DNA of 64,000 bases from an uncultured delta proteobacterium (GCA_963773975.1 CAVZDJ010000036.1:3263-67262); one strand, 5' to 3'; shown: positions 9,097 to 31,295, counted from the first letter of the stretch. The notes: generated by a model from the sequence alone, not told the origin. Translations and numbers: made by a program.

Positions 9097-9129
9097 CAGT
9101 TCGAATTCACCTCGCTCAGCCAACGAGTC
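9097..9129 (+). repeat. tRNA-3'-end-like dispersed repeat, copy 1
   Basis: The sequence is CAGTTCGAATTCACCTCGCTCAGCCAACGAGTC. It matches the copy at 14990-15021 (minus strand) with only one substitution and one 1-nt indel. Confidence 0.75.
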
Positions 9130-9300
9130 TCAGGTTGTAGCCGTTCTCCGGGAAACCCGCCAGAAAGCGCCAATGTGGCGGCGAAGTGACCATTTCATCG
9201 AACCGGAGAAGGCCTCCAGGTCGCGTTTACATCTAGTCGGGTCGACCTTCTCTCTGTTGCGCGGGTTGTCCACGTCTGACAAAGGGCGCGCGAACTGACG

Positions 9301-10527
9301 TCAGACGCGCTCGATAATCGTCGCGACTCCCATCCCACCGCCGATACACATCGTGATCAGCGCGGCGGATTTGTTCTGGCGTTCGAGTTCGTCGAGCACC
9401 GTGCCGATCAGCATTCCGCCGGTTGCGCCCAGCGGATGACCGAGGGCGATCGCGCCGCCGTTAACGTTGACCGTCTCAGGATCCATCTCGCAGTCGCGCA
9501 TCACCTTGAGCGGCACGGCGGCGAACGCCTCGTTGATTTCGACGAGGTCGATATCCTTGATTGTCATGCCGGCCTTTTTGAGCACGCGGCGGGTCGCGGG
9601 CACCGGTGCAGTGAGCATGATGATTGGTTCGTCGCCGGCGGTCGCCGTCGCGACGACGCGGGCGCGCGGCTTGAGTCCGTGCGCCTTGGCGTAATCGGGC
9701 GAGGCGAGCAGCAACGCGCTCGCACCATCGACGATGCCCGACGAATTGCCGGCGTGATGCACGTGCGGAATCGACTTGACATTGGTGTAGCGCGACATCG
9801 CCTTCTGGTCGAAACTCAGGGTGTCGCCTCTCTGCACGTACTTGCCGATTTGCTCGAACGAGGGTGACAGCTTGCCGAGCCCTTCGAGCGTGGTTGTGCG
9901 CGGATGCTCGTCATGATCGAGGAGGACGCGGTTGGCCGCGTCGCGCACGGGAATCAGGCTCTTCTTGAGCCGACCTTCGGCATGGGCGCGAGCATAGCGG
10001 CGCTGGCTTTCCAACGCGAAGCGGTCGCAATCCTCGCGCGAGAAGCCTTCGATCGCCGCGATCAGATCGGCCGAGATGCCCTGCGGGACTAGAGGATGGA
10101 GTTGGCGCAGATGGGGATTGTGGCCGTCGATACCGCCGCGATCGGCGTCCATCGGCACCCGCGACATTGATTCGACGCCGCCGGCAACTACCAGATTCTG
10201 CTCGCCCGCCTTTACGCCCATCGCGGCAAAATTCACTGCCTGCTGGCCTGAGCCGCAGAAGCGATTGATGGTGACTCCGGTCGAATCGTTGGGCCATTCG
10301 GCGGCCAGCACCGACATTCGCGCGATACACATCGCTTGGTCGCCGTAAGCGGTGACGCAGCCCACGACGACGTCATCGACTTCGCGCGTGTCGATGTGGT
10401 TGCGCTCCTTGATCGCGTTCAGCGTTTGCGCCATCAGCTCCTGCGGATGCAATCCAGCGAGCGCGCCGTCTTTCTTGCCGCGTCCGCGGGACGTACGCAC
10501 CGCGTCGATAATCCATGCTTCGCCCAT
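9301..10527 (-). CDS. Acetyl-CoA acetyltransferase (thiolase)
   Basis: Motifs are [11 protein letters not shown] (active-site Cys), [12 protein letters not shown] and [15 protein letters not shown]. The start is chosen at the second ATG, which has AAGGAG 6 nt upstream. The track start at 10578 is longer. Confidence 0.9.
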
Positions 10528-10810
10528 CGCCATCTCCTTACGGCTCTTAATATCATGAACTGGGGCGCCTATGTACAAACCGGATCGCGCCGGGCGGACA
10601 AATTCGAGACTGTCGTCGACACGCAGTCGGCCGCAACGACAGCACGTTCAATGCGCGGGACGGAGTTGCTTTACGCGCTCACCTCGCTACAGCGTTGATC
10701 GAGCGGCTGCTCCAAGTCACGCTTGGCGGCTAGGAGCCAGACTGCGATAATGCGGCCGAGGAAAACGAGGGGGGTAGCGGCACGTTCGGCTGGCAACGCG
10801 AGTTTAGAAA

Positions 10811-10854
10811 CCGGTACCGTCAGTTCGAATTCACTTCCTCTCCGCCATCGAGTC
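10811..10854 (+). repeat. tRNA-3'-end-like dispersed repeat, copy 2
   Basis: The sequence is CCGGTACCGTCAGTTCGAATTCACTTCCTCTCCGCCATCGAGTC. It matches copy 5 (31145-31187, minus strand) at 39 of 44 positions. It lies in the divergent intergenic region between the thiolase and the FAD oxidase. Confidence 0.8.
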
Positions 10855-10977
10855 TTCTCCCTTTGCAATTCCTTTGCAATTCGTCGAGAGATGATCGAAG
10901 ATACGCGTGAGAGAGCGGGTCCGCACGCGCATTGTGATGTCCGCAGTCGCGTGAAGAATTCTAAAAACGCGGATCCA

Positions 10978-12861
10978 ATGAACAGAAGAGCATTCCTGAA
11001 AGCAATCGGATCGGCGGCGCTGCTGCCGATGTTGCCGCGCCGCCTCCTCGCTGATGCCGCTCCGGCCGCTAGCGGATTCCGTCGTCGCCGCCCGTCCGAT
11101 GCCGCGTGGCCATCGCAGGCCGACTGGAAGCGCCTGAACGATGCGGTCGGCGGAAATTTGATTCGCGTCGACTCTCCCATCTCCGTCCTCAGCACCGATC
11201 CCGATGGCGCCGCAGCGAAAGAGCTCGCGGCGAATTTGAAAAATCCCTACTACATCGGCGAGCAGCCCGGGCTCACGCAAAGTTCCGGATGGCTCGATGC
11301 GTGGGCGAGCAAGCCGAGCGTCTATGCGGTCGCGGCGCGCAATGCCAATGACATCGCGGCGGCAGTTAACTTTGCGCGCGACAATGACTTGCGCCTGGTG
11401 GTCAAGGGCGGCGGTCATAGCTATCAGGGCACCTCCAATGCGCCCGATTCGCTTCTCATCTGGACGCGCCACATGAACGATATCGCGATGCATGACGCGT
11501 TCGTTCCGAGCGGATGCGAGCACACGATGCAGCCGCAGCCGGTGGTTACGTTCGGCACCGGCATCATTGGAATGCAGGCTTACGACGCGGTTACAACCAA
11601 AGCGGGAAAATACATCCAGGGCGGCGGATGCCTGACCGTCGGCCTCGCGGGTCTGATCCAGGGCGGCGGCTTTGGAAGCTACTCCAAGCGCTATGGCACC
11701 GCCGCGGGCAGCTTGCTCGAAGCCGAAGTCGTCACCGCCGACGGCCAAATTCGAATCGCGAATGCGTGCACCAATCCCGATCTGTTCTGGGCTTTGAAAG
11801 GCGGCGGAGGTGGCACCTTCGGTGTCGTGAGCAGGATGACGGTGCGCGCGCACGAGCTGCCCGAGTTTTTCGGCGCGGCAAACATCACGATCAAAGCGTC
11901 CTCCGATGATGCGTACCGCGGCCTCATCCGCGACATCGTCGCCTTCTATCGCGATCATCTCTTCAACGAGCATTGGGGTGAGCAAGTCCATGTGAGGCCC
12001 GACAACACGCTCGAGGTCAAAATGGATTCGGCGGGCTTGAGTACCGAGCAAGCAAGGCAAGTCTGGCAGCCGTTTCTGGATTCGGTGAAGCATTCGTCAC
12101 AATGCTCGATCAAAGGCATCACGTCCATCGGGAGCATACCGGCGCGGCACTGGTGGGACCCGCAGTGGTGGAAGGAGCACTGGCCGGAGATCGCGTTTCC
12201 ACGCGACGGCGCGATGCACGCGATCATCGACGACGTCCTGCTGCATGTGATGCATCAGCCTGTTTTCACATTCGACCCGCGGCCCGGTGCGAGTCCCAAC
12301 AACGCGTGGTGGGTCGGAAACACCGGCGAGGCATCGATCTTCTGGTGGGCATATCAGTCGCTATGGCTGCCCGAATCGCTACTCGAGACTAGCTCGCAGC
12401 AGCGCCTAGCCGATGCGCTATTCGCAGCGTCCCGCTATGCGGGAATCGAACTCCACTTCAACAAGGGTCTTGCCGGAGCACCTCCCGATGCGATCGCGGC
12501 CGCGAAGGACACCGCCACGAATCCATCGGTGCTGTCAGCATTTGCGCTGGCGATCGTTGCCGATGGGCAAGGGCCGTCGTATCCCGGCATCGCTGGCCAT
12601 GAGCCATCGGTCGAGGCTGGGCGCAAAGCCGCCGCGCGCATCGATCAGTGCATGAGTGAGCTTCGCGCGGTCGCGCCTAACGGCGGAGCCTACGTGAGCG
12701 AGAGCAATTACTTCGAGAAGAACTTCCAGCAAGCATACTGGGGCAGCAACTATCCGCACCTCCTCGAGATCAAGAAGAAATACGATCCTTCAGGACTGTT
12801 CATCGTTCACAATGGAGTAGGGTCTGAGGAGTGGAGCGCCGACGGCTTCACTAAGCTCTGA
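10978..12861 (+). CDS. TAT-exported FAD-binding oxidoreductase (PCMH-type FAD domain plus a berberine-bridge-like C-terminus)
   Basis: The ATG at 10978 gives MNRRAFLKAIGSAALLPMLP, a twin-arginine signal. The FAD domain shows RLVVKGGGHSYQG. The C-terminal YWGSNYPHLLEIKKKYDPSGLF is BBE-like. Confidence 0.85.
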   Translation: MNRRAFLKAIGSAALLPMLPRRLLADAAPAASGFRRRRPSDAAWPSQADWKRLNDAVGGNLIRVDSPISVLSTDPDGAAAKELAANLKNPYYIGEQPGLTQSSGWLDAWASKPSVYAVAARNANDIAAAVNFARDNDLRLVVKGGGHSYQGTSNAPDSLLIWTRHMNDIAMHDAFVPSGCEHTMQPQPVVTFGTGIIGMQAYDAVTTKAGKYIQGGGCLTVGLAGLIQGGGFGSYSKRYGTAAGSLLEAEVVTADGQIRIANACTNPDLFWALKGGGGGTFGVVSRMTVRAHELPEFFGAANITIKASSDDAYRGLIRDIVAFYRDHLFNEHWGEQVHVRPDNTLEVKMDSAGLSTEQARQVWQPFLDSVKHSSQCSIKGITSIGSIPARHWWDPQWWKEHWPEIAFPRDGAMHAIIDDVLLHVMHQPVFTFDPRPGASPNNAWWVGNTGEASIFWWAYQSLWLPESLLETSSQQRLADALFAASRYAGIELHFNKGLAGAPPDAIAAAKDTATNPSVLSAFALAIVADGQGPSYPGIAGHEPSVEAGRKAAARIDQCMSELRAVAPNGGAYVSESNYFEKNFQQAYWGSNYPHLLEIKKKYDPSGLFIVHNGVGSEEWSADGFTKL

Positions 12862-13579
12862 TTCGCTCTGCTAGCTCTCGGAGTACTTCCTATTGCTCGG
12901 CAATTCGCCCGACGGAGAGGCAGAGGTCGGTGATAGACGCCTTACGCAGAATACATTTGCGCCATCTATGATGAATGCTTCAAATGGCGCCGATCACGCG
13001 ACGCGCCATACCGAGCGCTTCCGACCAGAATCCACTTCCCGAGTGCATCATCTCGACGATGTCGCGGAGGCGCTCCATCACCAATATGCTAGGGTTTAGC
13101 TTTTGACTCAGGACGTCTACCAACAATGATCCAGGCTTACTGCGAGGACATGGAACAGGTACTGTTCTTTCTGCGAAGAGCTGCTCGACCAGACGCGGAA
13201 GTGTGGCTCAACCGCTGATCCCAAAGATGTCGTTTTGCCTTCTCGACGTCCTTCATTATTCCCTCGTAAACGCTTCCGAAGGTCTTGGTATAGGTAGTCC
13301 CCATATAGTTTGTACGTGAGACCTTATCGTGCGCCGGCAGCACGCGAGCGATACACGCGCTTTATGCGACGATTGCCGGATGATACCTCACATCTGAGGC
13401 TCGTTGGCGGAACGAATTGGGATCGAACTATCAGTGGACTCCACAAATCTGTCAGTAGGCCGTCCGAAAGGCGCCAAATAGCTCCAATAAACAAGGATGG
13501 ACAAATGGTCGACATCCTTACGGAGGAAAACGCGACAGACTCCAGAAGTAACCGAGGAGCCAGCAGACTAAGGTCGTTG

Positions 13580-14581: not shown

Positions 14582-14989
14582 TGGCGTGGTCCTTATGATC
14601 GGTTTGTCATCTTCCTTCTTAGACCTCTGCTCTGACAGTTCCAAACGAACGAGAGGCCGGCACGTCGAGCGTTTCATTCGGCGCGAAATCGAGCTAGCAC
14701 GGTTAGCGATCTTGCGCCCGGCCGAATTCTCTCTCCTCGCTCGTATCGCTCGTACTACTTTCGCTGGCGGGTCAGCAGCGCGATCGATTCAAACAGCAGC
14801 GCAGGGGGGCGGGTTCGCTTCGGCGACTTAGAGCTGGATTTGCGGTGTCGCCATGAAATCAGGCTATCGCCAAGAGATCGAAATCACCAATGAACTGGTT
14901 TGGATTGAGTTTGAGAATGGACATCGCGTCGGAGTTCATTGCCGATTGCAGGAGGGAATTTCCGGTACCTCAACATCTCCGACAGGCAG

Positions 14990-15021
14990 GACTCGTTGGC
15001 GAGCCAGGTGAATTCGAACTG
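14990..15021 (-). repeat. tRNA-3'-end-like dispersed repeat, copy 3a (inverted partner of 15071-15113)
   Basis: The reverse complement reads CAGTTCGAATTCACCTGGCTCGCCAACGAGTC. A CCGGTACC motif lies nearby at 14962-14969. Confidence 0.75.
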
Positions 15022-15070
15022 TAGGGCGACTTCGCCAGGGTCAGCAGGTCGCCTCAAAGCGTCAATTAGT

Positions 15071-15113
15071 CGGTACCGACGGTTCGAATCGATTCCCCTT
15101 CGCCACCCTGTCC
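15071..15113 (+). repeat. tRNA-3'-end-like dispersed repeat, copy 3b
   Basis: The sequence is CGGTACCGACGGTTCGAATCGATTCCCCTTCGCCACCCTGTC. It shares the CGGTACCG…GTTCGAAT…TTC…CCAC…GTC architecture with copies 2 and 5. Confidence 0.65.
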
Positions 15114-15232
15114 TCGATTCTCACTATTCTCTTGCCAAGTGTACAGATAGCGCCCACTTGGTCCGAACAACAACCAAGTCAGAATCGCGGCCCGACAAGG
15201 TTTTGAGAGGCGACAGCGGTCCGGAACGTATC

Positions 15233-18200
15233 TCAACCGCTGTTATCTTTCACGATGCGGTATATCTGCTGCCCGTACCTCTCCACGGTCGTCATTCCAA
15301 TACCGGAAATGCCGAGTAGCTCGCGGGCTGTTCCTGGGCGTCTGCTGGCCATGGCTTTCAGTGCCCGGTCACTGAAGATGCGAAACGCCGGAACTCTGCG
15401 TCGTCGGGCCTCGGCCATTCGCCACTCACGCAGGGCCGCTTCGATACGGGAATCCGATCCAGCGTGTTGGGCCGATGACACGGGCTTTTGCCGGACTACC
15501 TTTTCCGATCGCTCCGAACGCTTCCGTTTCTCTGGCGTGGCGGCTCTCTTCTTGTTCTTGCCGGTTGCCGAGGCCGGCGCCAGATCTTTTATGATGAAAC
15601 CGATGGGAGTCTGTTCGTCGACCGAGTGAGCCGCGGGTGTGAGACTCACCTTGCGATACGGGATCTGCTTGCCATCTTTCTCGAACACGGCATCCGAAAG
15701 GCGCACCAGTCCGGCCCGCGCCATTGCGCCCAGGACTTCTTCGAAGGCGTCACGGCTCATCACACCGTTCGGACACAACTCGCCGTGAAGCTTGCCCGTT
15801 GATTTCGTATCGCCCGCGCGGAGGGCCGCGATTACACGGAACAGCGCAGTGCGTTCCGCCTCCGTGGCGGTCCGGAACCGTTGGGCGACACACTGCGCAG
15901 GAGCGCAAAAATCGCAGATCCCGCACGCCGTCTGTCCATCTGCAAGATCGCCAAAGTGGCGCACTAGCGTGGACATGCGGCACTGGTTGCTCTCGGCGTA
16001 CCGGATCACCAAGTCGATCTGCGCCCGCTTCTGCTTCCCGTGAGCGATGTACGACTTCCGCCACTGGGGCTGGCCGCAGCTGACGTTTTCGGCAAAGTCC
16101 ATCACGGCGCCCCCGTGGATCCATAGTTTTTCGAGAGCTTTGTCGAAGATGTCAGGTTTCATCCGCAGTCGCTTCTGCAGGGCTGTCTTCTCTTGAGGCT
16201 CAGAGCGGAGCTGGGCAAGAATCCCGTCCAATACCGCGACATCTGGGTAATCGCGTTCGAAGAAGAAATCGTGCGTGTAGCGATCGGCGTAGGAGTGCAT
16301 TAAGATTGCACGGCTTGGTCTTCCATCGCGCCCTGCTCGTCCGATCTCTTGGTAGTACGCCTCCAGGCTTCCCGGCAAGGCCGTATGGATAATGGTGCGG
16401 AGATCCGGCTTATCGATTCCCATGCCAAACGCAATCGTCGCGACCATGACTTCAATTCTGCCGACGAGGAATTCTTCCTGGACCCGCTCGCGATACTCGG
16501 CCTCGAGCCCAGCGTGATACGCCGCCGTGGCAAAGTGCCCGGCAAGTTCCGCAGCCAACGTATCCGCCTGCTTTCGAGTCGGCGTGTAGATGATGCCTGG
16601 CCTGCGGCCGGCATCGAGCAGTAATTCGCAGGCGAGCTCAGCTCGTCGGGACGGTGCAATCTCGAGCACCTCAATTGCGAGATTGGCGCGTCGAAACCCG
16701 TGAATGAAACGAGCCGGTTGGGCAAGTCCTAACTGTGCGCAGATATCGTCCTGAACGAGCGGGGTAGCTGTCGCGGTGAGTGCAATTACAACCGCCGGTC
16801 GCAACGATGGCAGATATTGACCGAGCATCCGGTAATCCGGCCGAAAGTCATGCCCCCACTGCGAGATGCAGTGGGCTTCATCGATAGCAATTAGTGACGG
16901 CTTGCGTTTCCCGAGCATCTCAGGGAAACCCGCCACGCGGAGTCGTTCCGGCGCGATGAACAGGAATTGTAGTTTGCCGTTGAGGTAATCCATGCAGGCC
17001 TGGCGGGAGGCTCCGCGGTTGCGGCCAGAATGAATACGGTCTACCGCGAATCCCCGCTCTTTGAGCTTGGCCACCTGATCTTCCATCAACGCGATGAGCG
17101 GACTGATCACGAGCGTTGTCCCTCCACGCGCGATCCCAGGCAACTGGTAGCACAGAGACTTGCCGGATCCAGTCGGCATAACCAGCAAGGCATCTTTGCC
17201 CTCAACCGCTGCCCGACAGACCGCTTCCTGGTTTGGACGAAACGAGGAAAATCCGAAGGCGTTCTGCAAGAGGCTCGGCAGCGAATCGCTCGTGAGTGGC
17301 GCTGCCGTATTGGCCGGTTCTGGCTGAATTTGGAGCCGTTGCGGATCTCCGACCGCGGCGGCCCCTACAGCCTTTGCAGCCGTAGCCGGTTTCCCGACTT
17401 TGCCCACGACCTGCCGCACGTAATTTTCGATGCCCTCAAGGAAAGGCTCCAGCGGCTCAGCCCCGCGCTGGATCCGCTTGAGGTGTGCTTCCCACTGGCC
17501 AGTCATGGCGGGACTCTTGACCTCGATATGCACAACTTCGATGAGCCGGATGCCCTTGTCGGTTGCCTCCAGGCTTTTTCCATTGCGCACGATGTAGCCG
17601 CGCTTGAGCAGCACCTCGATGATGGCCGCACGCGTCGCCGGAGTGCCGAGACCAGTCTCCTTCATGGCCTCCGAGAGTTCCTTCTCTTCAAGTGTCTTAC
17701 CAGCGGTCTCCATAGCCGTGAGTAGCGTCGCTTCCGTGAAGCGCTTGGGAGGCCGCGTGCTTTTCTTCACGGCGTTAATTTCGACCACTGTTTGAAGTTG
17801 GCCCTTTTGAAGATCCGGGGGTAAAGTCTCCGGGCGCCGCTGATCCTCCCTCCCGTCGTCGTCTTTTGTCGTGCTCTTCTCGGCCGAGCGCTCCAGCACT
17901 TTCCATCCGGCCTGTTCCACCGTGGTTCCTGAGGTGTGATAGCGGTCAACAATATCGCTGTTGGCGATGCTGGTGATCACGGTTGTAACCGACCAGATAT
18001 AATCATCGTGCCACGCACCAAGCAGGCGGCGGCAAATCAGATCGTAGATTTTGCGCTCGTCAGCGGATAAGGCGACCTTGTCGGGCGAGGTGGCGGTAGG
18101 AATGATCGCGTGATGATCGGTGACCTTTGCATCATCGATGAATCGTCGCCCCAGCGGGCGCTCGCCGGTACGCGGAGCCAAGTGCTCTCGATACGGTGCC

Positions 18201-19273
18201 TCGATCGCCTTCACAACTCCTGGTAACGTCTGACTCACATCTTGCGACAGGTACCGGCTGTCCGTGCGCGGGTAGCTGACGAGCTTGTGGCGTTCATACA
18301 GCGCCTGTGCGAGATCTAGTGTTTGTTGCGCACTGAATCCGAAAAGGCGGTTCGCATGCCGCTGTAACTCCGTGAGGTCGTACAACGGTAGCGGAGCCAT
18401 CCGCTGCGTTTCGGATTTGATCGATTCGACTGAGGCGCTACCGCTGTGCGCACGCTCGACGATGCGTTTTGCTTCTTCGCCATCGCTTGGCAGTCGCATA
18501 GCCTGTTGCAGCGACTCCTGTCCCGGTCCATCTTCCTGTCGCTTGCGAAACCAAGTGCCCGCATAGCTGTTATCTGTCCTGCTTTCGATCGGACAAAAGC
18601 TGGCCACAATTTCCAGATAATCCTCAGATACGAATTTCCGGATGGCGAGTTCCCGTTCGACTAGCATAGCTAGCGTCGGAGTCTGCACGCGCCCCACGGA
18701 GAGCTCCTCGCTATAGGCAAGGGAGTATGCACGCGACAGGTTCATCCCTACTAGCCAGTCGGCCCGGCTGCGTCCCCGTGCGGCAGCGGCCAGTGAATCG
18801 TAATCGCTACCGGGTCTCAGCCGCTCGAAACCCTTGCGGATAGCCTCGGGTGTAAGCGAGGAGATCCACAGCCGACTGACGGGTTTTTGGCATCGTGCGG
18901 CTTCATAGATGTAACGAAAGATCAACTCGCCCTCTCGGCCGGCGTCGGTGGCGCACACCAGGCGCGAAATTCGCGGCGAATCCAGGATCTTCTGTACGAC
19001 TTCGAACTGCTCTCTCGTCTTTTCGTACGAAACGAGTGGCCACTGCTTTGGCAGCATGGGCAGCATGTCACGCCGCCAAAAGCGCCATTCGGGGTTCATC
19101 TCGTGCGGCTGTGCGAGTGCAATCAGGTGGCCGAGGGCCCAGGTCACCACGTAGCCGTTGCCGTGCAGATATCCTTCACCTTTTTTTGCGGCGCCGACAA
19201 CACGCGCGATGTCGCGCGCGACTGAAGGCTTTTCGGCAAGTACCGCGATCGTGTCGGATTCTGGAAGCGCCAT
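15233..19273 (-). CDS. Fusion protein: type IA DNA topoisomerase (Topo III-like) N-terminal half plus a RecQ-family helicase with HRDC as the C-terminal half
   Basis: Topoisomerase part: TOPRIM [14 protein letters not shown] and [13 protein letters not shown], and the active-site region [12 protein letters not shown]. Helicase part: [55 protein letters not shown], the Zn cluster [12 protein letters not shown]…CGICDFC, and a C-terminal HRDC-like [17 protein letters not shown]…ISGIG. The start is taken at ATG 19273 (GGGAG 8 nt upstream), giving 1346 aa. The track start at 19669 adds 132 implausible residues. Confidence 0.9.
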   Translation of the reverse strand: [1346 protein letters not shown]

Positions 19274-19831
19274 CTTGAAACTCCCAGTTTTGCGATGCGG
19301 CAACTTCGGATGCAGCGCTGCAGGCTGGACGTTTGGCAAATACGTCAATGCCGAGCCGAACTTCGGAGTCGGGCGCCGGCTATAGTCGACCTCAAGTCCT
19401 GACAGACCATCACCTCCGACGACGTCGCGCCTCGGTTCCTTTGCGCTCTCGCCACTGCTATCGCGGTTAGGTGAAACCCGCAAGGTGGTGGGTTGCTCGA
19501 AACAAACCTGTACCCACAACCCACCGCCCCAGAGTGTTGACAACCGCAGACCAAGTCCGCCCGGTCCCACTTGAAGTGCACAGTTCCCAGCCGCTGGACC
19601 GAATGCGATGCACTGGTGGTGATTATGACGTCTCTCTGTCACTGCTGCGATTGCCAGTGGTTGCGCCACATCATAGCCGCGATCACGCCATGCCAGCGAA
19701 CTTGACGGCGAGCAACCCCATATGAGAATTCACTCGATCGAGCGTGGGCGAACGCGCCGCGGTGGAGTTCGAACGCCTCGACCTTCAGAGCTATGATGCG
19801 TCAGTCGACCCAGGCCAGAAATTCAGCGGCT

Positions 19832-20591: not shown

Positions 20592-23500
20592 ATGGCAAAA
20601 ATGAATGCCGGGGGAGCAGCCGCAGCCGGGGGGTTCAGCGTTCAGGACCAAGTTGGCGCTGCGATTGCAGTGGAAATTTTGGCGGAGACTCAGAGTTCCG
20701 GGCGCTGGGACTTGCCGGCTAATACCGCCCTGCGCGAGCTTTGGTGTGAGACTCAGACTTCCGTTGATGACATCATCGTCCGGACTTCGGAAGACGGACA
20801 TTTATTCATTCAGGTAAAAAAGGGTCTCAAGCTGTCTAAGCAGAGCGGGTCACGCTTTGCGTCCGCATTGGACCAATGCGTTCGGCTCTTCATCGATAGT
20901 GAGTACGGGGGGGCCGATCTCAAACGCCGACTGAATCCTGATAAAGACAGGGTCGTCATCGTCACCGACGAAGACGCTTCCGCGTCCGTCAGAAAGCAGC
21001 TTCCTGATGCCCTGAAAAGATTGCGCGAGTCGCCGGCGGGAAATTTGGGGTTGGCTGCTAAAAGCAAAGCTGAGAAAGATGCGCTGGATACAGTAAGTCA
21101 GCTAGTTGACGGCGCGTGGAAGAAGCTCACCGGCAAAGTACCGTCGGACAAAGAACTCCGGAGTCTCCTCGGCCTGCTTCGCGTTGTGTGGCTCGACAGA
21201 GCCGGGTCCGAAACCGAGGCCAAGAGTTTGTTGGCCAGCACGGTTCTGACAGACCCAAGCCGCGCCGGCGACGCCTGGAATGCTCTGCTGAAAAGATGCC
21301 GGGAGTTGACCGAGACTCGCTCCGGTAGTGATGCATCCGGGCTGCAGAAAGTTCTTCTCGACACGGGACTGCCCCTGAAAGCGGTCCCGAGTTTCCGCGG
21401 AGACATCGGGCAGCTTCAAGATTTGACCGGTGAGAATCTGAGACTCCTGGAGCGTCATGCTTCGATCCGGATTGGCACAGATTTGCTGCCGGTTGCGCGG
21501 CGTGTGGTTGGAGAGCTTCGGCGCGTTGCGGAAGGGCAGTCGGTCCTTGTGGTGGGGGAGCCTGGCGGCGGCAAGTCTGGAGCAATTCATGACCTCGTCC
21601 ATCGGCTTCGCAAGGAGAATCGTGATGTGGTTCTCCTGGCAGCGGATCGCGTTGGCAGCCCCAGCCTACAGAGCCTTCGGACGGAACTGAGCCTCCAACA
21701 CGAGTTGGTTGATGTTCTGAAGAATTGGCCGGGGCCGCAACCGGGCTTTGTTGTCGTCGATGCGCTCGATGCCGCACGAAACGCGAGAGCATCTTGTGCA
21801 TTGCGCGAGCTGATCGAGCTTACGTTGCACGAGACGGGCCGCTGGCGAGTAGTGGCTTCGATCAGGAGCTTCGATTTGCAGTACGGGACGGAGTATCAGC
21901 GGCTCTTTCCGGCAACGGCGGTGGTGGAGGTCGAGGAGCAATTTCGTGCGGCGAAGTTCCATCGAACCAGCCACGTTAACGTACTGCCTTTCAGCGACAC
22001 AGAACTGCAGGAGATCGGAAAGCAATCGCCGGCGCTTGCTAATTTGATCGATTCAGCTCCGCCGGCCTTACGGAAGCTTCTGGCCGTTCCCTTCAATCTT
22101 GAACTTGCCGCCGAGCTGCTCACTGACGGACTGTCTGTCAAAGACCTGACCGGTATCTCCTCTCAGCTCGAGCTGCTCGACGGCTACTGGCATCAGCGGG
22201 TGATTTTGAACCGCGGTGTCAATGACGGCCAGGGCGACGGGCGTCAGGACGTGCTTCGACGTTCATGTCAGGAAATGGTAAGGACCCGCTCTCTTCGAGT
22301 GGGCCGAAGCACGATCGGGGACGCGACCAACAGTCAAGCGTTGAACGAAGTGTTGAGCGCTGGCGTGCTCAACGATGATCCAAGGCGCTTTACTTTGTCG
22401 TTCTCTCACCACACGCTTTTCGATTACGCGACCGCCCGGCTGGTTCTGACTTCTTCGGCTTCCGGCCTGGCCAGTCAGCTCGCTGGCGACGCCGAGCTTG
22501 CGTTGATTATCCGTCCCAGTCTCGGCTTCCACTTCCATCGCATCTGGGGTTTAGACTCCGCGCGAGAGGAGTTTTGGAAGACGGTCTTCGCCATCCTTCG
22601 GGAAGAGAAAGTTCCGGAGATTGGCAAGCTGATAGGGCCGTCTGTAGCCGCCGATCAGACGGATGCGATTGCGGAACTTGCGCTCCTCTGTAACGCGCTG
22701 GCCGAGTCCGACGAGAACGCCCGCCGGTCGGCTGAGGAGGCCCTTAATCATTTGGTCGGCGCGTTGGCGAACGCGCCATCCAGTCCGCAGGAGCTTGCGG
22801 GGCCCGAGGCTGGTCCTTGGTGCTACCTCGCAGAGCGAGTCAGCGAGAAGCTCACCGATCGCTCGGCGTACGCACTGGCTTCGCTGTTTTCCCTGCTGAA
22901 CGAACAAAGCGGTTCCTTTATGGCGGAGCAAAGAGTCGCAGCAGGCAAGGCAGCGCGCCGCCTTTTTGAGTTCGCCTGGAGCCTGTCACGTTACGACCGT
23001 TGGCTGATAATTCGGAGTATTCAGTCGGTCTGCCGAACTTTCGCGAGTGACGCGGATTCGTCGCGTGGACTTTTGCGGCGACTGATCGAGCCGGAACGGC
23101 TGAGCCAGCATGGTTTTGAGGAGCTACCTTGGCTAGCGCGAGAAGTCACCGGTCTTGTTCCGGCCGATCCGAATCTCGTTGAAGAAATTTATCAGTCCGC
23201 TTTCACCCATCCACTACCGGAGGAGGAAAAAACCGAATTCCTTCCAAGCCGCATACTGGGTCTAGTGTCTAATAAGCGGCAGGACTTCGAACACGGGTTG
23301 TGGCAATTGGCGGAATGCTTTCCGACTTTCCTCGACCCGGCCCCGCTTCAAGCAATTCGCGCGTTGATCTCGGCACTGGAGAAGTACGTCGAGCAGCACC
23401 ATCCAACGTTTTCTGGTGAGGTCGTTGAACGAACGTTCGCGTTCGATGGGGTCACGGCGCGAATTTGGCCCGACCTAAGCCATTCCTGGGACATCGGAAC

Positions 23501-25547
23501 CCTGTACGTTCAGGACAACCCAGTCCGAATGCTTGATGCCCTCACTAGCCACTTGAGCAAGCTGGCCGCAAACGAAGAAAAGATGTCAGAACTGGCGCAT
23601 ATAGTCGACATTATTGCTCGCGAAAACAGGATGGCCGTGGTTTGGCGTCGTCTTTTGGGTTCAGCCGTGCAGTTCACCGATACGTTGGGCGTGCTAGTCA
23701 AACCGCTCCTTTGGGCCACGCCGATCATAACAGAATCCGATACTACGAGGGCTGCGGGAGAACTTCTAAAGGTTATCTTTGCGAAGCTGTCGGCTGAGGA
23801 TCGAGAGCGAATTGAGCAAGTAATCCTGGCTATTCCGGCAGAGGCTCCGCCGAAGCAGAAGGAAGCCTCGGAATATTGGCGTAACAGGTTGTTGGGCTGC
23901 CTAGAAGCCGCGGCATTGGTTACAAGCGAGGCAAAGGAAACTCTCAAAGGCCTGGGGGTCGCTGGCACACTTCCGGCAAACGAGCCGCTTGTCCGGATTG
24001 GGCCGGGAGAAGTTGGGGCTTTTTCGGAATCGGATTTTCTACGGATGAAAGGAGTGTCAGTTGACGATGAGGCGAACCGGAAGATCCTGAGCTTAGAGGA
24101 ACCGGTTAAGGCATTTGCTCAACGCTACGCCAATAGTGTGCCCGAGCTTGCTGAAAGCGAGACCGTCCTTTCTGCTCTTAAGGCGTTGCGATCAGGGCTC
24201 GATGAGGCAGAGGGTGCTGATCCAAAACAGCGTGATTACGTATGGGGCGTCCTCGCTCGGGCCTGCGCCTGCATCGCGAGCCAAAAGGGGCTTTCATCTG
24301 CATTGGGTGCGTTTGTCCGTGAAACGCTTTTGAAAGCGGCCGAATGTGTTGAGCCCGAGTACGTGCCTGAACAGGAGGAGCAATTCCAGCGCGGCCCCGC
24401 GTGGGGGAGTGCAGCTCGCATCGAAGCCGCAGCTGGGTTGATGACGCTGGCGCGGGATACTGGTTTCGCGGACGCTGACGTTCTCGGCTGCATCGAGCGG
24501 CTCGAAGAAGAGCCTGTATCCTCTGTGCGTTACCAAATCGCATGCCGGCTGGCATTCCTCAATCAGACGACGCCCGAACTGATGTGGAAGCTTCTGGAGC
24601 GGGAGTGCAGCGAAGAGAAGAACTGGGGGGTACTTCAAGGCACGCTCAGTACACTGCGCAGCATTGCGGGGCCAAACGCCGACCGCGTTGCCAGCCTGAC
24701 AAAGGAGGTCCTTGCACGCATTCAAGAAGGTCCGCGTGGTGGGCGACCTGTTGAGGAACTTTGCCTCTCCATACTCACAGGGTTGTACATTTGGCAGGAG
24801 AACACCAGTTGTCGCGAGATAATCGAGGGAATTATTGCCCAGCCGACGAAGTTCCCCGACCAGATCTCCATTATTCTGCTGAACTTGCGGGAAGCACTGA
24901 GTTACGGACCATCGCAGCCCGAAGATCCAAAAGCTGAAGCTGTTCGACGACGAAGCATCGAGTTGGTAGTGCGTATTCTGGAAACGGCTCGCTCAGGGAT
25001 TCATCAATTCGAAAGTGACCACGTCGGAAGGCCTGAACAATCATGGTCGGAAGACGAAAAAAAGACCGCACAGGCCCTCGGCAAGGTCATGAACGTGGTC
25101 GCGGAACAGGTCTTCTTCGCATCGGGAGCCCTTGCGCTTCGGCTGCCATCCAATGCTCAACGACCGGGCCTTACACAAGAACAGAGAGCGCGGTTCTTCA
25201 AGGAAACAAGTCAGCTTATCGACCAGCTCACCCTGCTCGGCTTTTCGAGCACCGTGCACCACGTGCTGCAAACGCTTGAGTCGTTTGTGGAGTTCGACGC
25301 GGCGGGAGTTTTTCTTAACATCGGTCGAACTCTAAAAACTGCCGCGCCGTATGGTTATCAGTTCGAGCAACTTGCGGCCGATGTCTTCGTGCGGCTCGTC
25401 GAGCTTTATCTCGCCGACCATCGGGAAATATTCGAACAGCGAGCCGACTGTCGCAACGCGCTCATTGAAACGCTCGACATCTTCGTGAAAGTGGGTTGGC
25501 CCAACGCCCGTCGTCTGACCTACCGGCTCGAGGAACTTTTCCGTTGA
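20592..25547 (+). CDS. Large multidomain protein: Cap4/DUF4297-like PD-(D/E)xK nuclease N-terminus, P-loop NTPase, and about 1100 aa of helical (HEAT/ARM/TPR-like) repeats; NLR/Avs-like defence candidate
   Basis: The N-terminus reads GGFSVQDQVGAAIAVEIL … WCETQTSVDDIIVRTSEDGHLFIQVKKG, an E..DD..QxK pattern (nt about 20748-20819). Walker A is VLVVGEPGGGKSG (nt about 21555-21578). Walker B is GFVVVDALDAARN (nt about 21747-21770), followed by RWRVVASIRSFD. The remainder is leucine-rich and helical. Total length is 1651 aa. Confidence 0.85.
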   Translation: MAKMNAGGAAAAGGFSVQDQVGAAIAVEILAETQSSGRWDLPANTALRELWCETQTSVDDIIVRTSEDGHLFIQVKKGLKLSKQSGSRFASALDQCVRLFIDSEYGGADLKRRLNPDKDRVVIVTDEDASASVRKQLPDALKRLRESPAGNLGLAAKSKAEKDALDTVSQLVDGAWKKLTGKVPSDKELRSLLGLLRVVWLDRAGSETEAKSLLASTVLTDPSRAGDAWNALLKRCRELTETRSGSDASGLQKVLLDTGLPLKAVPSFRGDIGQLQDLTGENLRLLERHASIRIGTDLLPVARRVVGELRRVAEGQSVLVVGEPGGGKSGAIHDLVHRLRKENRDVVLLAADRVGSPSLQSLRTELSLQHELVDVLKNWPGPQPGFVVVDALDAARNARASCALRELIELTLHETGRWRVVASIRSFDLQYGTEYQRLFPATAVVEVEEQFRAAKFHRTSHVNVLPFSDTELQEIGKQSPALANLIDSAPPALRKLLAVPFNLELAAELLTDGLSVKDLTGISSQLELLDGYWHQRVILNRGVNDGQGDGRQDVLRRSCQEMVRTRSLRVGRSTIGDATNSQALNEVLSAGVLNDDPRRFTLSFSHHTLFDYATARLVLTSSASGLASQLAGDAELALIIRPSLGFHFHRIWGLDSAREEFWKTVFAILREEKVPEIGKLIGPSVAADQTDAIAELALLCNALAESDENARRSAEEALNHLVGALANAPSSPQELAGPEAGPWCYLAERVSEKLTDRSAYALASLFSLLNEQSGSFMAEQRVAAGKAARRLFEFAWSLSRYDRWLIIRSIQSVCRTFASDADSSRGLLRRLIEPERLSQHGFEELPWLAREVTGLVPADPNLVEEIYQSAFTHPLPEEEKTEFLPSRILGLVSNKRQDFEHGLWQLAECFPTFLDPAPLQAIRALISALEKYVEQHHPTFSGEVVERTFAFDGVTARIWPDLSHSWDIGTLYVQDNPVRMLDALTSHLSKLAANEEKMSELAHIVDIIARENRMAVVWRRLLGSAVQFTDTLGVLVKPLLWATPIITESDTTRAAGELLKVIFAKLSAEDRERIEQVILAIPAEAPPKQKEASEYWRNRLLGCLEAAALVTSEAKETLKGLGVAGTLPANEPLVRIGPGEVGAFSESDFLRMKGVSVDDEANRKILSLEEPVKAFAQRYANSVPELAESETVLSALKALRSGLDEAEGADPKQRDYVWGVLARACACIASQKGLSSALGAFVRETLLKAAECVEPEYVPEQEEQFQRGPAWGSAARIEAAAGLMTLARDTGFADADVLGCIERLEEEPVSSVRYQIACRLAFLNQTTPELMWKLLERECSEEKNWGVLQGTLSTLRSIAGPNADRVASLTKEVLARIQEGPRGGRPVEELCLSILTGLYIWQENTSCREIIEGIIAQPTKFPDQISIILLNLREALSYGPSQPEDPKAEAVRRRSIELVVRILETARSGIHQFESDHVGRPEQSWSEDEKKTAQALGKVMNVVAEQVFFASGALALRLPSNAQRPGLTQEQRARFFKETSQLIDQLTLLGFSSTVHHVLQTLESFVEFDAAGVFLNIGRTLKTAAPYGYQFEQLAADVFVRLVELYLADHREIFEQRADCRNALIETLDIFVKVGWPNARRLTYRLEELFR

Positions 25548-25783
25548 GTCGGGTCAACAATGCTACCGACTTTCTGACGAAGCTGAAGGAGCTACGGGAT
25601 CGATATGATACCGTGCACCGGCCTCAGGTCGAGCGTGTACGGAAGCGCTATGCAGACAATCCAGGTCTCACGGAACCTGCTTGGCCGCGGCGGGGTCAGC
25701 GCAGTCGCGGTCGAGTTCCATGGCCGCCGCTACGTGCTGGTGCCTCAGACCTGAGACTGAGTGGCGGAGAGAAGGGGATTTGA
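25544..25783 (+). CDS. Small ORF translationally coupled to the 1651-aa gene; the 3' end is ambiguous
   Basis: A TTG at 25544 overlaps the TGA stop of the upstream gene in a TTGA junction. The product begins SRVNNATDFLTKLKELRDRYDTVHRPQVERVRKRYADNPGLT. The track frame then becomes Arg/Pro-rich and runs into the repeat copy. An alternative frame gives a more natural end, …LLGRGGVSAVAVEFHGRRYVLVPQT, with a stop at about 25752. A frameshift is therefore possible. Confidence 0.3.
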   Translation: MSRVNNATDFLTKLKELRDRYDTVHRPQVERVRKRYADNPGLTEPAWPRRGQRSRGRVPWPPLRAGASDLRLSGGEKGI

Positions 25784-25796
25784 ACTCCCGAGACCC
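25755..25796 (-). repeat. tRNA-3'-end-like dispersed repeat, copy 4 (tRNA-Ser-like variant)
   Basis: The reverse complement reads GGGTCTCGGGAGTTCAAATCCCCTTCTCTCCGCCACTCAGTC. This gives a T-loop TTCAAAT, a 3' T-stem CCCCT, an acceptor strand TCTCTCC, discriminator G and CCA. No 5' tRNA half is present upstream. It aligns with copy 5 at about 30 of 42 positions. Confidence 0.75.
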
Positions 25797-26015
25797 TTCA
25801 GCATTCGATAGGCCCTGCTTGTCCCGATCGTTGGCGGAAAAATTCAGCCTGCTAGAGCTTTTGCATGTAACGAATAAGGTGTCATCACTCCATCAGCTTA
25901 GAATGGTTTCTTCTCCAATGTCCGGCCTTCTGGCGTTATATTAGTTCCAGAAAGTCTCGCGCAGGAAGTCGTCGTTAACGTCTATGTAAGTATGGTGACC
26001 GAGCTCGGCCTTATA

Positions 26016-26918: not shown

Positions 26919-27150
26919 TTGAGCAAGGGATCAGCGCACTGCGCGAGTTTCCGCGCCGTACCGGTGTCGCCGGCTGGATGCCGCGTCATCCGTATCCCGT
27001 GGCGCGGACGCAGTGTGACCAGCGGATGGAGTTCTACCGGATGCCCGGACACCAGGCGCAGCCGATAGCGCTGAGCCATCGTCGCCACGACCAGTTGCGC
27101 CTCGGTCATCGCGAAAGCGTTGCCGATACAGCACAGCGCATGCGTATTTC
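26909..27150 (-). pseudogene. Cytochrome P450 C-terminal remnant (a second, unrelated copy)
   Basis: …CIGNAFAMTEAQLVVATMAQRYRLRLVSGHPVELHPLVTLRPRHGIRMT is a P450 Cys-ligand loop plus L-helix and C-terminus. The upstream part is broken across frames. Confidence 0.55.
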
Positions 27151-27524
27151 GCCTACGCTGCGTTGGCCCGATCTAAAGCTAGTCCTTAAAGTCGCGCGGT
27201 GGTCGCTGGACGGACTCACGACCGGGCAGGCGGCTGCGAAGCTGGCAGGTGGAGTTCCGCCGGCAGGCGCTGCACCCGGTAGCGAAGAAGAACATCGCAT
27301 CCGCATCGACGAAGAAGGTCGCGTCCGCGAAAGCGAATGTATTCGTCGTGGTTTGCCGTACTCGGAATTGTATTGGCCGCGGCGCATCCTGACAACGAGG
27401 GTAGATATGTTCACTGGTTGAGTATCAACAACACGGCGCGCTGACCTAAAACTCGAAAGGCGAGCCACGGGGGATTTTGTGCCAGCTGGCTAACTAGAGA
27501 AGTTGGGATGGGAGGGACCCGGGA

Positions 27525-27572
27525 ATGGCAAAGCGGAGATACACGGCGGAGGAGATCGTGACGGTGCTGCGG
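27525..27572 (+). pseudogene. Possible IS3-family OrfA N-terminal remnant
   Basis: MAKRRYTAEEIVTVLR resembles the conserved start of IS3-family Transposase_8 proteins. Similarity is lost after about 16 codons. Confidence 0.3.
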
Positions 27573-27690
27573 CCGCTGATCAACCGCTTAACTTTGCGGC
27601 ACCCCTTCTGTGCCGACGCGCTGCTCGTATTCCGACGTCCCGCCCAGCTTGCACCACTCAGATCTAGTGACAAATCGGCTGGTGGGCGGT

Positions 27691-28755: not shown

Positions 28756-29194
28756 CTCTGCCTCCCTGCCGGGTGCTCTGTTCCGGAGGATCCATTTTGG
28801 GCCCCAACTCTCACTGGCGTTTAGTACAGAACAACCTGCTTTCGCAAATGGCCCAGCCTGAATCGTGAACATAGCTGGCTGGAGATAGCCAGCTACACGA
28901 CCGCGGGCATCGACGCAGACTTTCACCGACGTGCCGCGCGCGCGTAGAGCACCTGGTGATCAATCCGCGGTTCCGCGATTGGGCGAGGCGCGGATTGCTA
29001 TGATCGCGTGATCGAAGGATCGGCCCTCGGTATGAAGTGCGCCCTTGCGGAAGGAATTGCGGTAAGTCCCTCTATATCTTAGATTGCTTTACTCGCGTAG
29101 ATAGGAGGCTTGCAGGCCTCTTTGATCAGCATGGCTTCGATTTCGACCGAGAAATAGCTGACTAGCGTGATTTTGGGTGAGGACCCGCTTAGAT

Positions 29195-31096
29195 TCAAGG
29201 AATGAAATTCTTGAGAGCGTTAATCGGGTTCGGAATCGATGGAATTGCCGATCCCGCCGACGGTTTGCCGACCAACGATCCCACCGCGTTCACTCCGCGG
29301 CGGACTATGTTGCCGGGCGTGTTGATCGTACCCATCGCCAGGCGCTCCGCCAATGTCGGCACGTCCGGCAGCACGATCACCGCGGGCAGTTTCCCGGTCA
29401 CGTAAACCGGGATCGCAACCTGCAGCCCGAGCGTGAGCCGGATGTCGGAGTTCATGCTGATGTTGTTGTCCATGTCGAACCAGCCGTCGCCGGTGATCGC
29501 GTAATCTGGTGACTGCACAAACAGGTCATGCGTCGTGAACCGCGGCCCCACCTGCTGAAAGCTCATGCGGGCTGATTGCAGCTCGGTGTCGGGATCGACC
29601 AACAACCCATGATGACTCGACATGAATGCCACGGTCATGATCTGGCTGACTCCCGGCGCCTTGCCGACTGCGTTGAGCGCGTCGGCCACTATATTGACCC
29701 CCGCCAGCTTGCCGTTCGCGATTGACACTCGTCCGCTGCCGCGCAACGTCTGCCTGATTCTAAGCCAGCTCGCGAAGCTGCCCGTCGCCACAACGTTGCC
29801 GGTAAGGAGGCCGTGCACGGCGCTGGCCGTGCCGACATTTTGCGAGCGCAGCGCTTGTTCCAGGTTCAGATTCTGCATGGCGAGCGTGACGTTGAATGTC
29901 GGCGTGGCGCCGAAAACCGCATCTGCATCGGCCCGTAGCGAGCCGCCGAACACGCCAACGTTGAGCGGACGCGCCGACGCGCGGCCGTTCAAGTATGCCG
30001 CTGTCAGATCGAGATTGTTGTACGAAACATTTTCGAGCGACTCGTCCGACGATTGGATCGCCGCGCTGATTCGCGGCGAAGTTATCTCGCCATCCGCAGT
30101 GCCTTTGACCACGAGCACGTTGACAACGTCGCTCGGCGGGCGGCCCGCGAATATCTGCGCGAGCTTCACCGAGTCGGCCTTCAGCGTATAGCTTGCCTTC
30201 AGCGGACTTAACGATTCGACGCGTCAATCGAGATTCGCGTGCGCCGAACCGAACGTGAAACTGGTCGGCTCGACAACTTCGATCCCGTCGGTGAGACGAA
30301 TCCTGCCGCTTAGCTCGCTGATTCCGCCCTGCACCGACGGCCCCAACTTCATCGCAACCTGTTTCAGCGTCACGGTTCCATCCATTGCCGGCGGATTGCT
30401 ACCCAGTTTGACCGTGCCGTGAACTTCACTCATGCCCGCGACGTCGTATCCGGCCGCCGCATTTATCATCGGGCTCAGCTTGGCAAGGTTGAAGCTGTTC
30501 GAATCGATTTGCACGCTCAGGGGTTGCGCGCCACCACCCGAAAACCGGCTAGCCGTCAACTCGAGATCGGACAGCTTCAGGCTCACTCTCGCTATCTCGA
30601 GCTGATCACCCCAGATGCCGTTCGCATTCACCGTCATCGCGGTCCCGGCCGGCTTGTTGAAAATTGCCGAGTAAGCGACCCGGTTCGCGGTCAGATCGGT
30701 GTTGAGCACAATCGCGAGCTTGCCGAACGAGCCGCGTGCCGTCCCGCTCACAGACGCGGCGTCGGGAATCGAAAGCCCCGGCGGTAGCTTCGATCCCACG
30801 TCAGCAAGCGGCCGGAGACGGTCGAGCACGATCGAATCGAGCTTCAAGTTCAGATCGACGGGTATCGCCGATGCGTCCAGCACGCCTTGATTGAGCAGCG
30901 GACCGAGCTTGCCCGACGCCTCGATGTTCTGCTCATCGCCCGGAAAAGCAAACTTGGTCTCGACGTCGAACACCGACGCTGCGTTGAAGTCTGTTGCGCC
31001 GAAATCCAGGTGATGGGCGCGAATTGGCGCCGCCTTTTCGCTGAGATCGTTGAAGTAGATCTCGCCGTCCTCGATGCTGAGTGCCTTTATTGACAA
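29195..31096 (-). pseudogene. AsmA-family protein, 5'-truncated and interrupted by an in-frame TGA
   Basis: Track ORFs 30224-31096 and 29195-30169 are in the same frame, separated by a TGA at 30224-30226 (…SAHANLD*RVESLSPLKASYTLKADSVKLAQIF…). The repetitive beta-rich sequence ends in the AsmA_2-like …DIRLTLGLQVAIPVYVTGKLPAVIVLPD…. The N-terminal membrane anchor and the first 130 or so residues are absent. The truncation point abuts repeat copy 5. Confidence 0.7.
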
Positions 31097-31144
31097 TTCG
31101 GCGAGCGGATTTCGAGCGATTCTCCGAGAAGTACAAAAACTGAT

Positions 31145-31187
31145 GGACTGGATGGTGGAGGGAAGTGGATTCGAACTGTCGGTACCG
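31145..31187 (-). repeat. tRNA-3'-end-like dispersed repeat, copy 5
   Basis: The reverse complement reads CCGGTACCGACAGTTCGAATCCACTTCCCTCCACCATCCAGTC. The GTTCGAATCCACTTCCCTCCACCA part looks like a tRNA 3' end, but the 5' T-stem strand (GACAG) cannot pair with CCACT and no 5' half exists. Confidence 0.8.
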
Positions 31188-31295
31188 GTCTTGGAACACT
31201 CCGACGTCAGGCTTCAGTAGAATTTCACAACATCCTGGCGAGCGCCCGGCGAGCGTGCGTAGCAAACGGATGTTACAACTTTTTGTTCGCAACGG

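Follow-up and report, generated by a model that had tools for sequence, protein, structure and literature searches.

The DNA under study is a stretch of 64,000 nucleotides from an uncultured delta proteobacterium (GCA_963773975.1 CAVZDJ010000036.1:3263-67262), here called the window, which carries a dispersed repeat whose core resembles the 3' end of a tRNA. Seven copies of this repeat, c1 to c7, occupy successive intergenic gaps between blocks of one or two genes. The blocks separated in this manner contain a thiolase gene, a FAD/BBE oxidase gene, a 2-hydroxyacid dehydrogenase gene, a TopoIII-RecQ fusion gene together with a 1651-aa open reading frame (ORF), and a group of DUF2141, luciferase-like and AsmA-like genes. 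The copies are listed below in the order of their position; the arms named in the list are described with the layout of the unit, and the E-values were obtained with a hidden Markov model (HMM) that was built from 20 copies of other genomes and contained no window sequence.

Copy c1, 9045..9221, + strand: type B distal arm (9045-9096), tRNA-Ser-like segment with the end GCCA (9097-9122) and a P' arm of ~100 nt (9123-9221) with ACGAGTC as its first bases; no recombinase follows, and the thiolase stop lies at 9301; E = 5e-10.
Copy c2, 10777..10889, + strand, flanked by the start of the thiolase gene and by the FAD/BBE oxidase gene: partial type A arm, CGGTACCG (10812-10819), GTTCGAAT (10823-10830), CTCTCCGCCA, TCGAGTC and a weak P' arm; E = 8.7e-16.
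Copy c7, 13395..13480, - strand, in the gap that separates the FAD oxidase gene from the 2-hydroxyacid dehydrogenase gene: degenerate relative of c1 (GTTCGATC...TTCCGCCAACGAGCC), alike to the copy at 9097 over ~85 nt; HMM match at 13395-13435(-), E = 1.4e-3.
Copy c3, 14985..15072, - strand: type B arm, tRNA-like segment and ACGAGTC, forming the left half of a composite with c4; E = 3.9e-6.
Copy c4, 15054..15115, + strand: palindrome GTCGGTACCGAC (15069-15080), GGTTCGAAT, CCCCTTCGCCA and CCCTGTC, forming the right half of the composite; the stop of the TopoIII-RecQ gene lies beyond it at 15233; E = 2.1e-7.
Copy c5, 25752..25799, - strand: 3' fragment of the tRNA-Ser(GGA) type (AAGGGTCTCGGGAGTTCAAATCCCCTTCTCTCCGCCA), then CTCAGTC and a small hairpin; E = 1.7e-4.
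Copy c6, 31102..31246, - strand, upstream of an AsmA-like gene that is frameshifted or truncated: complete type A arm, CGGTACCG, T-loop look-alike, CCCTCCACCA, TCCAGTC and ~55 nt of P' arm; the only full-length unit (~145 nt) in the window; E = 9.1e-21.

All copies but c7 had already been listed in the initial annotation with correct coordinates and strands, and all six were recovered by the HMM of foreign copies (E-values from 9e-21 to 1.7e-4). The copies at 14990(-) and 15071(+), which had been counted separately, are actually one back-to-back composite, and the seventh copy at 13395-13480(-) had been overlooked. The matches are not due to chance, as the same HMM yielded no match in 50 dinucleotide-preserving shuffles of the window. 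The pattern CGGTACCGNCRGTTCGAAT occurs three times in the window versus 0.13 occurrences expected from shuffles. Recounting from the sequences reproduced the reported similarities between individual copies, with identity at 39 of 44 positions for the copies at 10811 and 31145, and one substitution plus one 1-nt indel over 33 nt for those at 9097 and 14990. The six copies align with an invariant GTTCGAAT, a CTCC(G/A)CCA block and AGTC three bases further on, which upholds the shared layout proposed for them. The proposed length of ~43 nt does not hold; the units are longer, as c6 and the span of c1 demonstrate. Weaker candidates at 19724-19785 gave no HMM match at E<1 and were dropped, and the HMM scan verified that the 32-64 kb half of the window is free of copies. 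ARAGORN calls neither a tRNA nor a tmRNA gene in the window, in agreement with the earlier statement that the copies are not tRNA genes. Their intergenic placement is based on the ORF list and not on gene prediction: each copy has its place between ORFs with Pfam support, and overlaps involve some maximal ORFs that lack Pfam matches. Relatives of c6 in other genomes (L043 and L010) share 82-88% identity with it over 82-86 nt.

One genome per species was scanned for the anchored pattern CGGTACCGNCRGTTCGAAT, which returned 76 loci. Approximately 35 of these are chance matches within genes and were disregarded; the chance expectation is estimated at ~100 (17.5 specified bases, 596 Gb). In viral sequences the DNA pattern was matched once, at chance level. 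True relatives of the repeat were found in soil metagenome-assembled genomes (MAGs) labelled delta proteobacterium, proteobacterium or Binataceae, and one of these MAGs contains at least eight exact pattern matches on three Mb-scale contigs. The pattern loci also include genuine tRNA-Ser genes from Bdellovibrionales, Clostridiales and Saccharibacteria, in which the long variable arm has CGGTACCG as its 3' strand and the arrangement CGGTACCG-N4-GTTCGAAT is present. The real tRNA-Ser(GCU) of one repeat-bearing MAG reads ...GGTAACCGGTACCGAGGGTTCGAATCCCTCCCTCTCCGCCA, and ...AACCGGTACCGAGGGTTCGAATCCCTCCCTCTCCGCCA is the sequence read in the tRNA-Ser(GCU) of a related MAG. Because a repeat-bearing MAG's own tRNA-Ser(GCU) carries the matching sequence, the repeat core corresponds, in diverged form, to the final ~45 nt of tRNA-Ser from the variable-arm loop onwards. 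This changes the view of the flanks of the repeat, both of which had been described as conserved non-tRNA sequence. On one side, the variable arm of tRNA-Ser(GCU) actually has CCGGTACCG as its 3' strand, and this sequence is present in genuine tRNA-Ser genes of several phyla and of a related host. On the other side, YCNAGTC is indeed not tRNA sequence and represents the first bases of the recombinase-proximal arm of an element, which also follow genuine tRNA-Ser genes with an inserted element. A single common source of all copies, as previously implied, is contradicted by the copy at 25755, which matches a 3' end of the tRNA-Ser(GGA) type (compare the genuine tRNA-Ser(GGA) in locus L092).

In a 23-copy alignment obtained by iterative nhmmer searches the unit measures ~96 nt, of which a 50-nt type A arm makes up the first section and the tRNA-like part the second, and more conserved blocks lie downstream of AGTC. 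A type B arm takes the place of type A in other copies; it holds an inverted second copy and gives rise to the back-to-back composite. The P (distal) arm carries a look-alike of the variable-arm 3' strand, T-loop and acceptor 3' strand of tRNA-Ser and is followed by the core CTCCGCCA. The P' (recombinase-proximal) arm starts with NN(G/C)AGTC and continues with a small hairpin and a CGAAAT..GCGCG block. A short reverse-strand ORF in the unit was considered and dropped, as the core is invariant even at the would-be wobble positions.

Clustering of the ORFs around the repeats in other genomes revealed a recurrent protein with Resolvase (PF00239) and Recombinase (PF07508) domains, i.e. a large serine recombinase (LSR). 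Nine of ~25 repeat-bearing genome loci contain an LSR gene or what is left of one, which runs convergently toward the repeat's AGTC end and is 170-320 nt away from it. The association was also sampled independently of the repeat by searching metagenome contigs with the LSR N-terminal domain, which yielded at least 572 relatives. Eighty loci were kept, and the 32 in which the LSR gene is near-full and its stop is followed by at least 400 nt were scored. A tRNA-Ser-like match on the opposite strand, 211-310 nt from the LSR stop, was detected in 13 of these 32 loci. Genuine tRNA-Ser genes with GGA, GCU or CGA anticodons were called by ARAGORN at that position in L092, L104, L106, L116 and L118, and the same position after the LSR gene is held by a tRNA-Gln gene in L109 and a tRNA-Asp gene in L103. 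Contigs of IMG/VR provided at least 526 further LSR relatives, with a genuine tRNA-Ser gene downstream of the LSR in seven of 80 kept loci. The intact LSR has 561 aa and its gene is preceded by a co-oriented DUF2924 gene (PF11149), a pairing that is found in 79 of the 80 kept IMG/VR loci. The nearest solved structures, as identified by PDB sequence matches, are TP901-1 integrase (9.7e-22), serine integrase 9iu2 (1.6e-14) and SPbeta YokA. Complete units of 2.6-3.3 kb, which contain only the DUF2924 and LSR genes and carry direct repeats of the tRNA-like sequence at their ends, are present at three loci.

L121: sites at 3202-3270 and 5839-5891, enclosing DUF2924 and LSR genes.
L142: sites at 8938-8976 and 11876-11927, enclosing DUF2924 and LSR genes.
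L041: tandem units, enclosing DUF2924 and LSR genes.

The connection to the window was examined with a model of the P' arm that was derived from LSR-linked copies only. This model matches c1 at 9119-9221 (E = 1e-6) and c6 at 31158-31102 (E = 2.3e-5), and a weak match follows c2 (E = 0.015). A sister family that ends in ...CTCCAGCGnnGAGTC and has no encoded CCA was observed in the alphaproteobacterial MAGs L023, L028, L044, L062 and L069, and is located at the same distance after a serine recombinase gene in the metagenome loci L132, L145, L153 and L156. Since this sister family holds the same place after the recombinase, the same system appears to extend to lineages without tRNA-encoded CCA.

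An alignment of related loci (A5) contains four configurations around the shared core CTCCGCCA, which correspond to the four types of attachment (att) sites.

attB, L008: free tRNA-Ser(GCU) with its native flank, ...CTCTCCGCCA followed by aattgctgcacttttt.
attL, L104, L118 and L094: the same tRNA with the element arm and then the LSR, ...CTCTCCGCCA followed by tacagtc..., tccagtc... and acgagtc..., respectively.
attR, L050: repeat-type look-alike (GACAGTTCGAATCGACCTCG) with the native flank, CTCCGCCA followed by aattgctgcactttttt.
attP-like or tandem junction (P-core-P'), L034 and L041: look-alike with the element arm, CTCCGCCA followed by acgagtc...

The native flank of the attR locus L050 is the same as that of L008 (aattgctgcacttttt). 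The repeats are quite probably DNA attachment sites of small integrative elements that carry the DUF2924-LSR gene pair and insert at the 3' ends of tRNA-Ser genes. Because the arms switch partners around CTCCGCCA in the alignment, we infer that the crossover takes place within or next to this sequence, the last eight bases of the tRNA. An exchange at this site would leave the host tRNA intact as attL (tRNA, P' and LSR) and would place the look-alike beside the native downstream flank of the tRNA as attR; YCNAGTC would then be the start of the recombinase-proximal arm. The look-alike would be a mimic that serves as a binding arm and not a spare part for the rebuilding of the tRNA. As it would never serve as a tRNA, its T-stem pairing would be free to decay, and GTTCGAAT and CTCCGCCA would be retained, presumably because the recombinase contacts them. 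Tandem arrays with P-core-P' sequences as their internal junctions would arise when insertion takes place repeatedly at sites that already exist. Possible dyad symmetry was noticed by eye in ACTTCG...CGAGT around CTCCGCCAA and in a second palindrome centred on CGG-TA-CCG. Partial copies tend to begin near the latter, which was considered as the crossover point, but the attR junction of L050 puts the exchange at CTCCGCCA. Therefore, the CGG-TA-CCG palindrome is more simply taken as the edge of the tRNA-derived similarity, and it may mark a second site.

Several points weigh against the assignment of the repeats as attachment sites of DUF2924-LSR elements. Genes for an LSR, a DUF2924 protein or a tRNA are absent from the 64-kb window itself, so that the link rests on homology to other genomes and not on adjacency in the window; as tblastn searches with the LSR and DUF2924 proteins found no match, a hidden recombinase remnant is not present either. 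All mechanistic steps are read from sequence. No single strain pair supplies all four att configurations, which were collected from different, related genomes, and attR is represented by the single locus L050. The model offers no explanation for the conserved back-to-back composite (c3/c4, L035, L041, L048 and L050) and no account of how P-core-P' junctions come to flank metabolic genes after loss of the recombinase. Finally, the orientations of the copies in the window are mixed (+ + - - + - -), whereas simple tandem accretion predicts one orientation.

The alternatives concern the nature of the repeat as RNA, as scar or as transposable element. A tRNA-mimicking RNA, or a 3'-end processing or stability signal for RNase P, RNase Z or the CCA-adding enzyme, would be in keeping with the preservation of GTTCGAAT and the encoded ...GCCA in nearly all copies and with the intergenic position of every copy, but such a function is scarcely credible. 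RNAalifold identified zero conserved base pairs in the 23-copy alignment. The T-stem, which forms five of five pairs in all 12 genuine tRNA-Ser genes, retains one to four of five in the window copies (four in c5), and 35 of 44 family copies pair at only two to three of five positions. An acceptor 5' strand, a D arm and an anticodon arm are all missing. Rfam searches, including the tRNA model, gave no match in the window at gathering score and none in eight repeat-rich loci even at E<=1, and ARAGORN called no tRNA gene at the repeat copies of related loci. The orientation of the copies relative to their downstream genes is inconsistent, with four convergent and three co-directional cases in the ORF map. 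By eye, ACTCGT/ACGAGT suggested a terminal helix and CTGTC/GACAG an anticodon-like hairpin, but neither is kept across copies. If the repeat acts at all, it would act as a protein-binding recombination site in DNA and not as RNA. A likeness to integron attC sites was not found, given the lack of conserved pairing, the mixed orientations and the serine type of the linked recombinase. It is also very improbable that the copies are independent scars of tyrosine-integrase islands in different tRNA genes, which would be alike only because tRNA 3' ends are alike. Islands in tRNA genes can normally be recognised by displaced 3' fragments of the tRNA gene (tDNA) (PMC4383910), and c5 stems from another tRNA-Ser isoacceptor than c2, c4 and c6. 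However, the copies share non-tRNA sequence on both sides (type A and B arms on one, NNAGTC with the hairpin and CGAAAT block on the other), the same non-pairing T-stem variants recur across genomes, and the recombinase that neighbours them at fixed spacing is a serine recombinase. No tyrosine-integrase domain was detected in Pfam scans of the window ORFs to ~33.6 kb and of the repeat-side ORFs of L034, L041, L043, L049, L121 and L142. The dismissal of att sites in the initial annotation was premature, because CCGGTACCG is tRNA sequence and YCNAGTC is an element arm; its view that the copies are something other than simple scars beside a tRNA gene is maintained.

A further alternative is a non-autonomous element derived from the tRNA-Ser 3' end, similar to a MITE (miniature inverted-repeat transposable element) or to a repetitive extragenic palindrome (REP), which spreads by itself or is moved in trans and in which recombinase elements merely land. 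Such an origin is unlikely, even though it would accommodate the many dispersed copies per genome (the MAG with at least eight exact pattern matches), the inverted back-to-back pairs with CCA-AGTC ends outward in at least ten loci, the solo copies beside ordinary genes in the window and a transposase of the rve family that is encountered in the window and again in 12 repeat-bearing loci. No target-site duplication was found at the eight composites with one or both termini readable; two others, including c3/c4, were unreadable. Between the rve gene and the copies there are 87-6200 nt, with both orientations represented, and the ends of the gene are free of repeat matches. Moreover, the repeat is intact beside the LSR gene and not split by an insertion, genuine tRNA-Ser genes stand in for it at the same position, and the attB, attL, attR and P-P' set has one common core. 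The rve-family transposase (HTH_32 with rve or rve_3) is encoded in the window at 1664-2860 (-) and occurs in L003, L004, L015, L026, L032, L034, L037, L043, L049 and L068. It was considered as the mobiliser of the repeat and rejected for want of a fixed spacing or orientation to it; because distance and orientation vary, it is regarded as a marker of regions rich in mobile elements. A likeness to REPs or bacterial interspersed mosaic elements (BIMEs) was not apparent, as RNAalifold found no conserved hairpin within the unit, and no Y1/RAYT transposase was seen in the Pfam scans of the window ORFs to ~33.6 kb and of the repeat-side ORFs of the six loci named above, although a RAYT gene elsewhere in the genome is conceivable. 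Among the explanations offered in the initial annotation, recombination sites of a tRNA-targeting integrase are thus retained, the tRNA-mimic RNA motif is discarded for the lack of conserved pairs and the unpaired T-stem, and the REP/MITE-like element is disfavoured by the lack of target-site duplications and of a matching transposase.

With the repeats read as attachment sites, the seven copies in the window are probably orphan junctions or remnants whose recombinase genes were lost, i.e. relics of tandem island accretion. Since the P' model matches their downstream side, c1, c6 and c2 have both arms and resemble internal junctions of a tandem array from which the recombinase has disappeared. 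On the most economical reading, the region is a mosaic to which site-specific accretion added blocks time and again and which later lost its recombinase genes and underwent inversions, the latter having to be assumed because the copy orientations are mixed. The GC content is 54-62% (mostly 57-60%) in the first 50 kb of the window versus 63-69% in the last 14 kb. The repeat-bearing stretch itself is rich in mobile elements and low in GC, with 57-60% compared to 64-69% beyond 50 kb. The step in base composition at 50 kb suggests that the first 50 kb, home of all copies, are acquired or mosaic DNA.

The back-to-back composite consists of two tRNA-like copies with their CCA ends outward and a spacer of ~55 nt, and is a conserved unit in at least two other genomes. 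Composite loci are located at the following positions.

Window: 14985-15115.
L035: 4745-4867.
L041: 7242-7367.
L048: 1848-1967.
L050: 7112-7231.

The c3/c4 composite is 86% identical to that of L035 over 113 nt and also aligns to those of L041 and L050. One side of the L041 composite points toward the recombinase, and the other side of the composite in L050 abuts the native tRNA-Ser flank. Another type of array was observed in L074, a Thermoleophilia MAG, in which four direct copies of a ~150-nt unit are present at 1877-4790 with spacings of 1065, 1031 and 653 nt. These units start with a well-paired tRNA-Ser 3' fragment and delimit very small att-bounded segments; no tRNA gene was called in the 8-kb locus. 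The seven intergenic sites within 22 kb, their mixed orientations, the conserved composite and the L074 array are compatible with a different role of the orphan sites. They could be working sites of cassette exchange, at which one or a few DUF2924-LSR genes elsewhere in the genome would excise, invert and re-insert blocks of one or two genes that lie between tRNA-Ser look-alike sites. This is a minor possibility; such a system would be comparable to integron cassettes or pdif modules but would be based on a serine recombinase.

Further genes of the window deserve mention. The gene at 15233-19669 (-), located between two repeat copies, is one ORF of 1478 aa that joins Toprim and type IA topoisomerase domains (TopoIII-like, PF01131, E = 6e-109) to a RecQ-type helicase with DEAD, Helicase_C, RecQ Zn-binding and HRDC domains. 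TopoIII and RecQ are normally separate partners, and a natural fusion of both is, to our knowledge, unusual. Divergent from this gene, an ORF of 1651 aa with an ATG start and no Pfam match at E<=1e-3 occupies 20592-25547 (+), and c5 lies 208 nt past its stop. A radical SAM/SPASM-domain gene of the peptide-maturase type is situated upstream of the repeat-bearing stretch at 5173-6234 (+). At 41769-41917, 149 nt that read as part of a small lysine/arginine-rich ORF are 93% identical to L015 1079-1226; this segment matched no Rfam family at E<=1, and the surrounding 41400-42200 gave only four chance-level matches far under gathering scores.

The assignment accounts for a tRNA-like repeat without a new class of RNA and provides a rule for annotation, according to which the boundary of an element with DUF2924 and serine recombinase genes can be recognised by a tRNA-Ser 3' look-alike with NNAGTC behind it. 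It points to an abundant clade of serine integrases that target tRNA-Ser and apparently also tRNA-Gln and tRNA-Asp. Their attB would be predictable and highly conserved, which is of interest for integrase-based genome engineering. Should the orphan sites still be active, they would offer a route for the shuffling of small gene blocks in soil bacteria.

A literature search returned no account of the repeat, of tRNA-Ser-targeting serine recombinases or of a role of DUF2924, and earlier reports may exist. Serine-family integrases were stated as not known to target tDNAs in the description of Islander (Hudson, Lau & Williams 2015, PMC4383910). The islands described there resemble the present system in that a tRNA 3' segment is repeated at the boundary, the integrase gene adjoins the tRNA, tandem arrays contain one fragment per member and fragments survive as relics. 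They differ from it in several respects: the recombinase here is an LSR with a DUF2924 partner, the crossover would fall in the last ~8 nt of the tRNA, the look-alike would not be needed for tRNA rebuilding and has lost its T-stem pairing, and the copies of the window are orphans without a tRNA or an integrase. The recombinase itself shares the order of Resolvase catalytic domain, Recombinase domain and C-terminal extension with TP901-1, Bxb1, phiC31, SPbeta YokA and TnpX, and the att site is near the int gene as in these characterised phage and transposon LSRs. All targets of characterised LSRs that we know of (TP901-1, Bxb1, phiC31, SPbeta YokA and TnpX) are protein-coding or intergenic sites, and in the literature searched none of these enzymes has a reported DUF2924 partner or tRNA-Ser target. 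Gene blocks that are bounded by att-type sites and have no recombinase of their own bring to mind the cis-mobilizable elements (CIMEs) of the ICESt1/ICESt3 family, which are att-flanked modules without a recombinase that result from accretion and subsequent gene loss. ICESt1 and ICESt3 depend on a tyrosine integrase, their target is the 3' end of fda, and all their known sites are in direct orientation; unlike in CIMEs, the orientations in the window are mixed and the blocks can be as small as one gene. In function, phiRv1 of Mycobacterium tuberculosis comes closest, an LSR element that reportedly integrates into copies of the dispersed repeat REP13E12, which serve as attB. Both systems combine a serine integrase with an att site in a multi-copy dispersed repeat and hence (by the repeat's copies) several target loci. 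REP13E12 is a repeat of ~1.4 kb unrelated to tRNA, whereas the repeat described here is 45-145 nt long, has tRNA-Ser as its source and includes arms that belong to the element itself.

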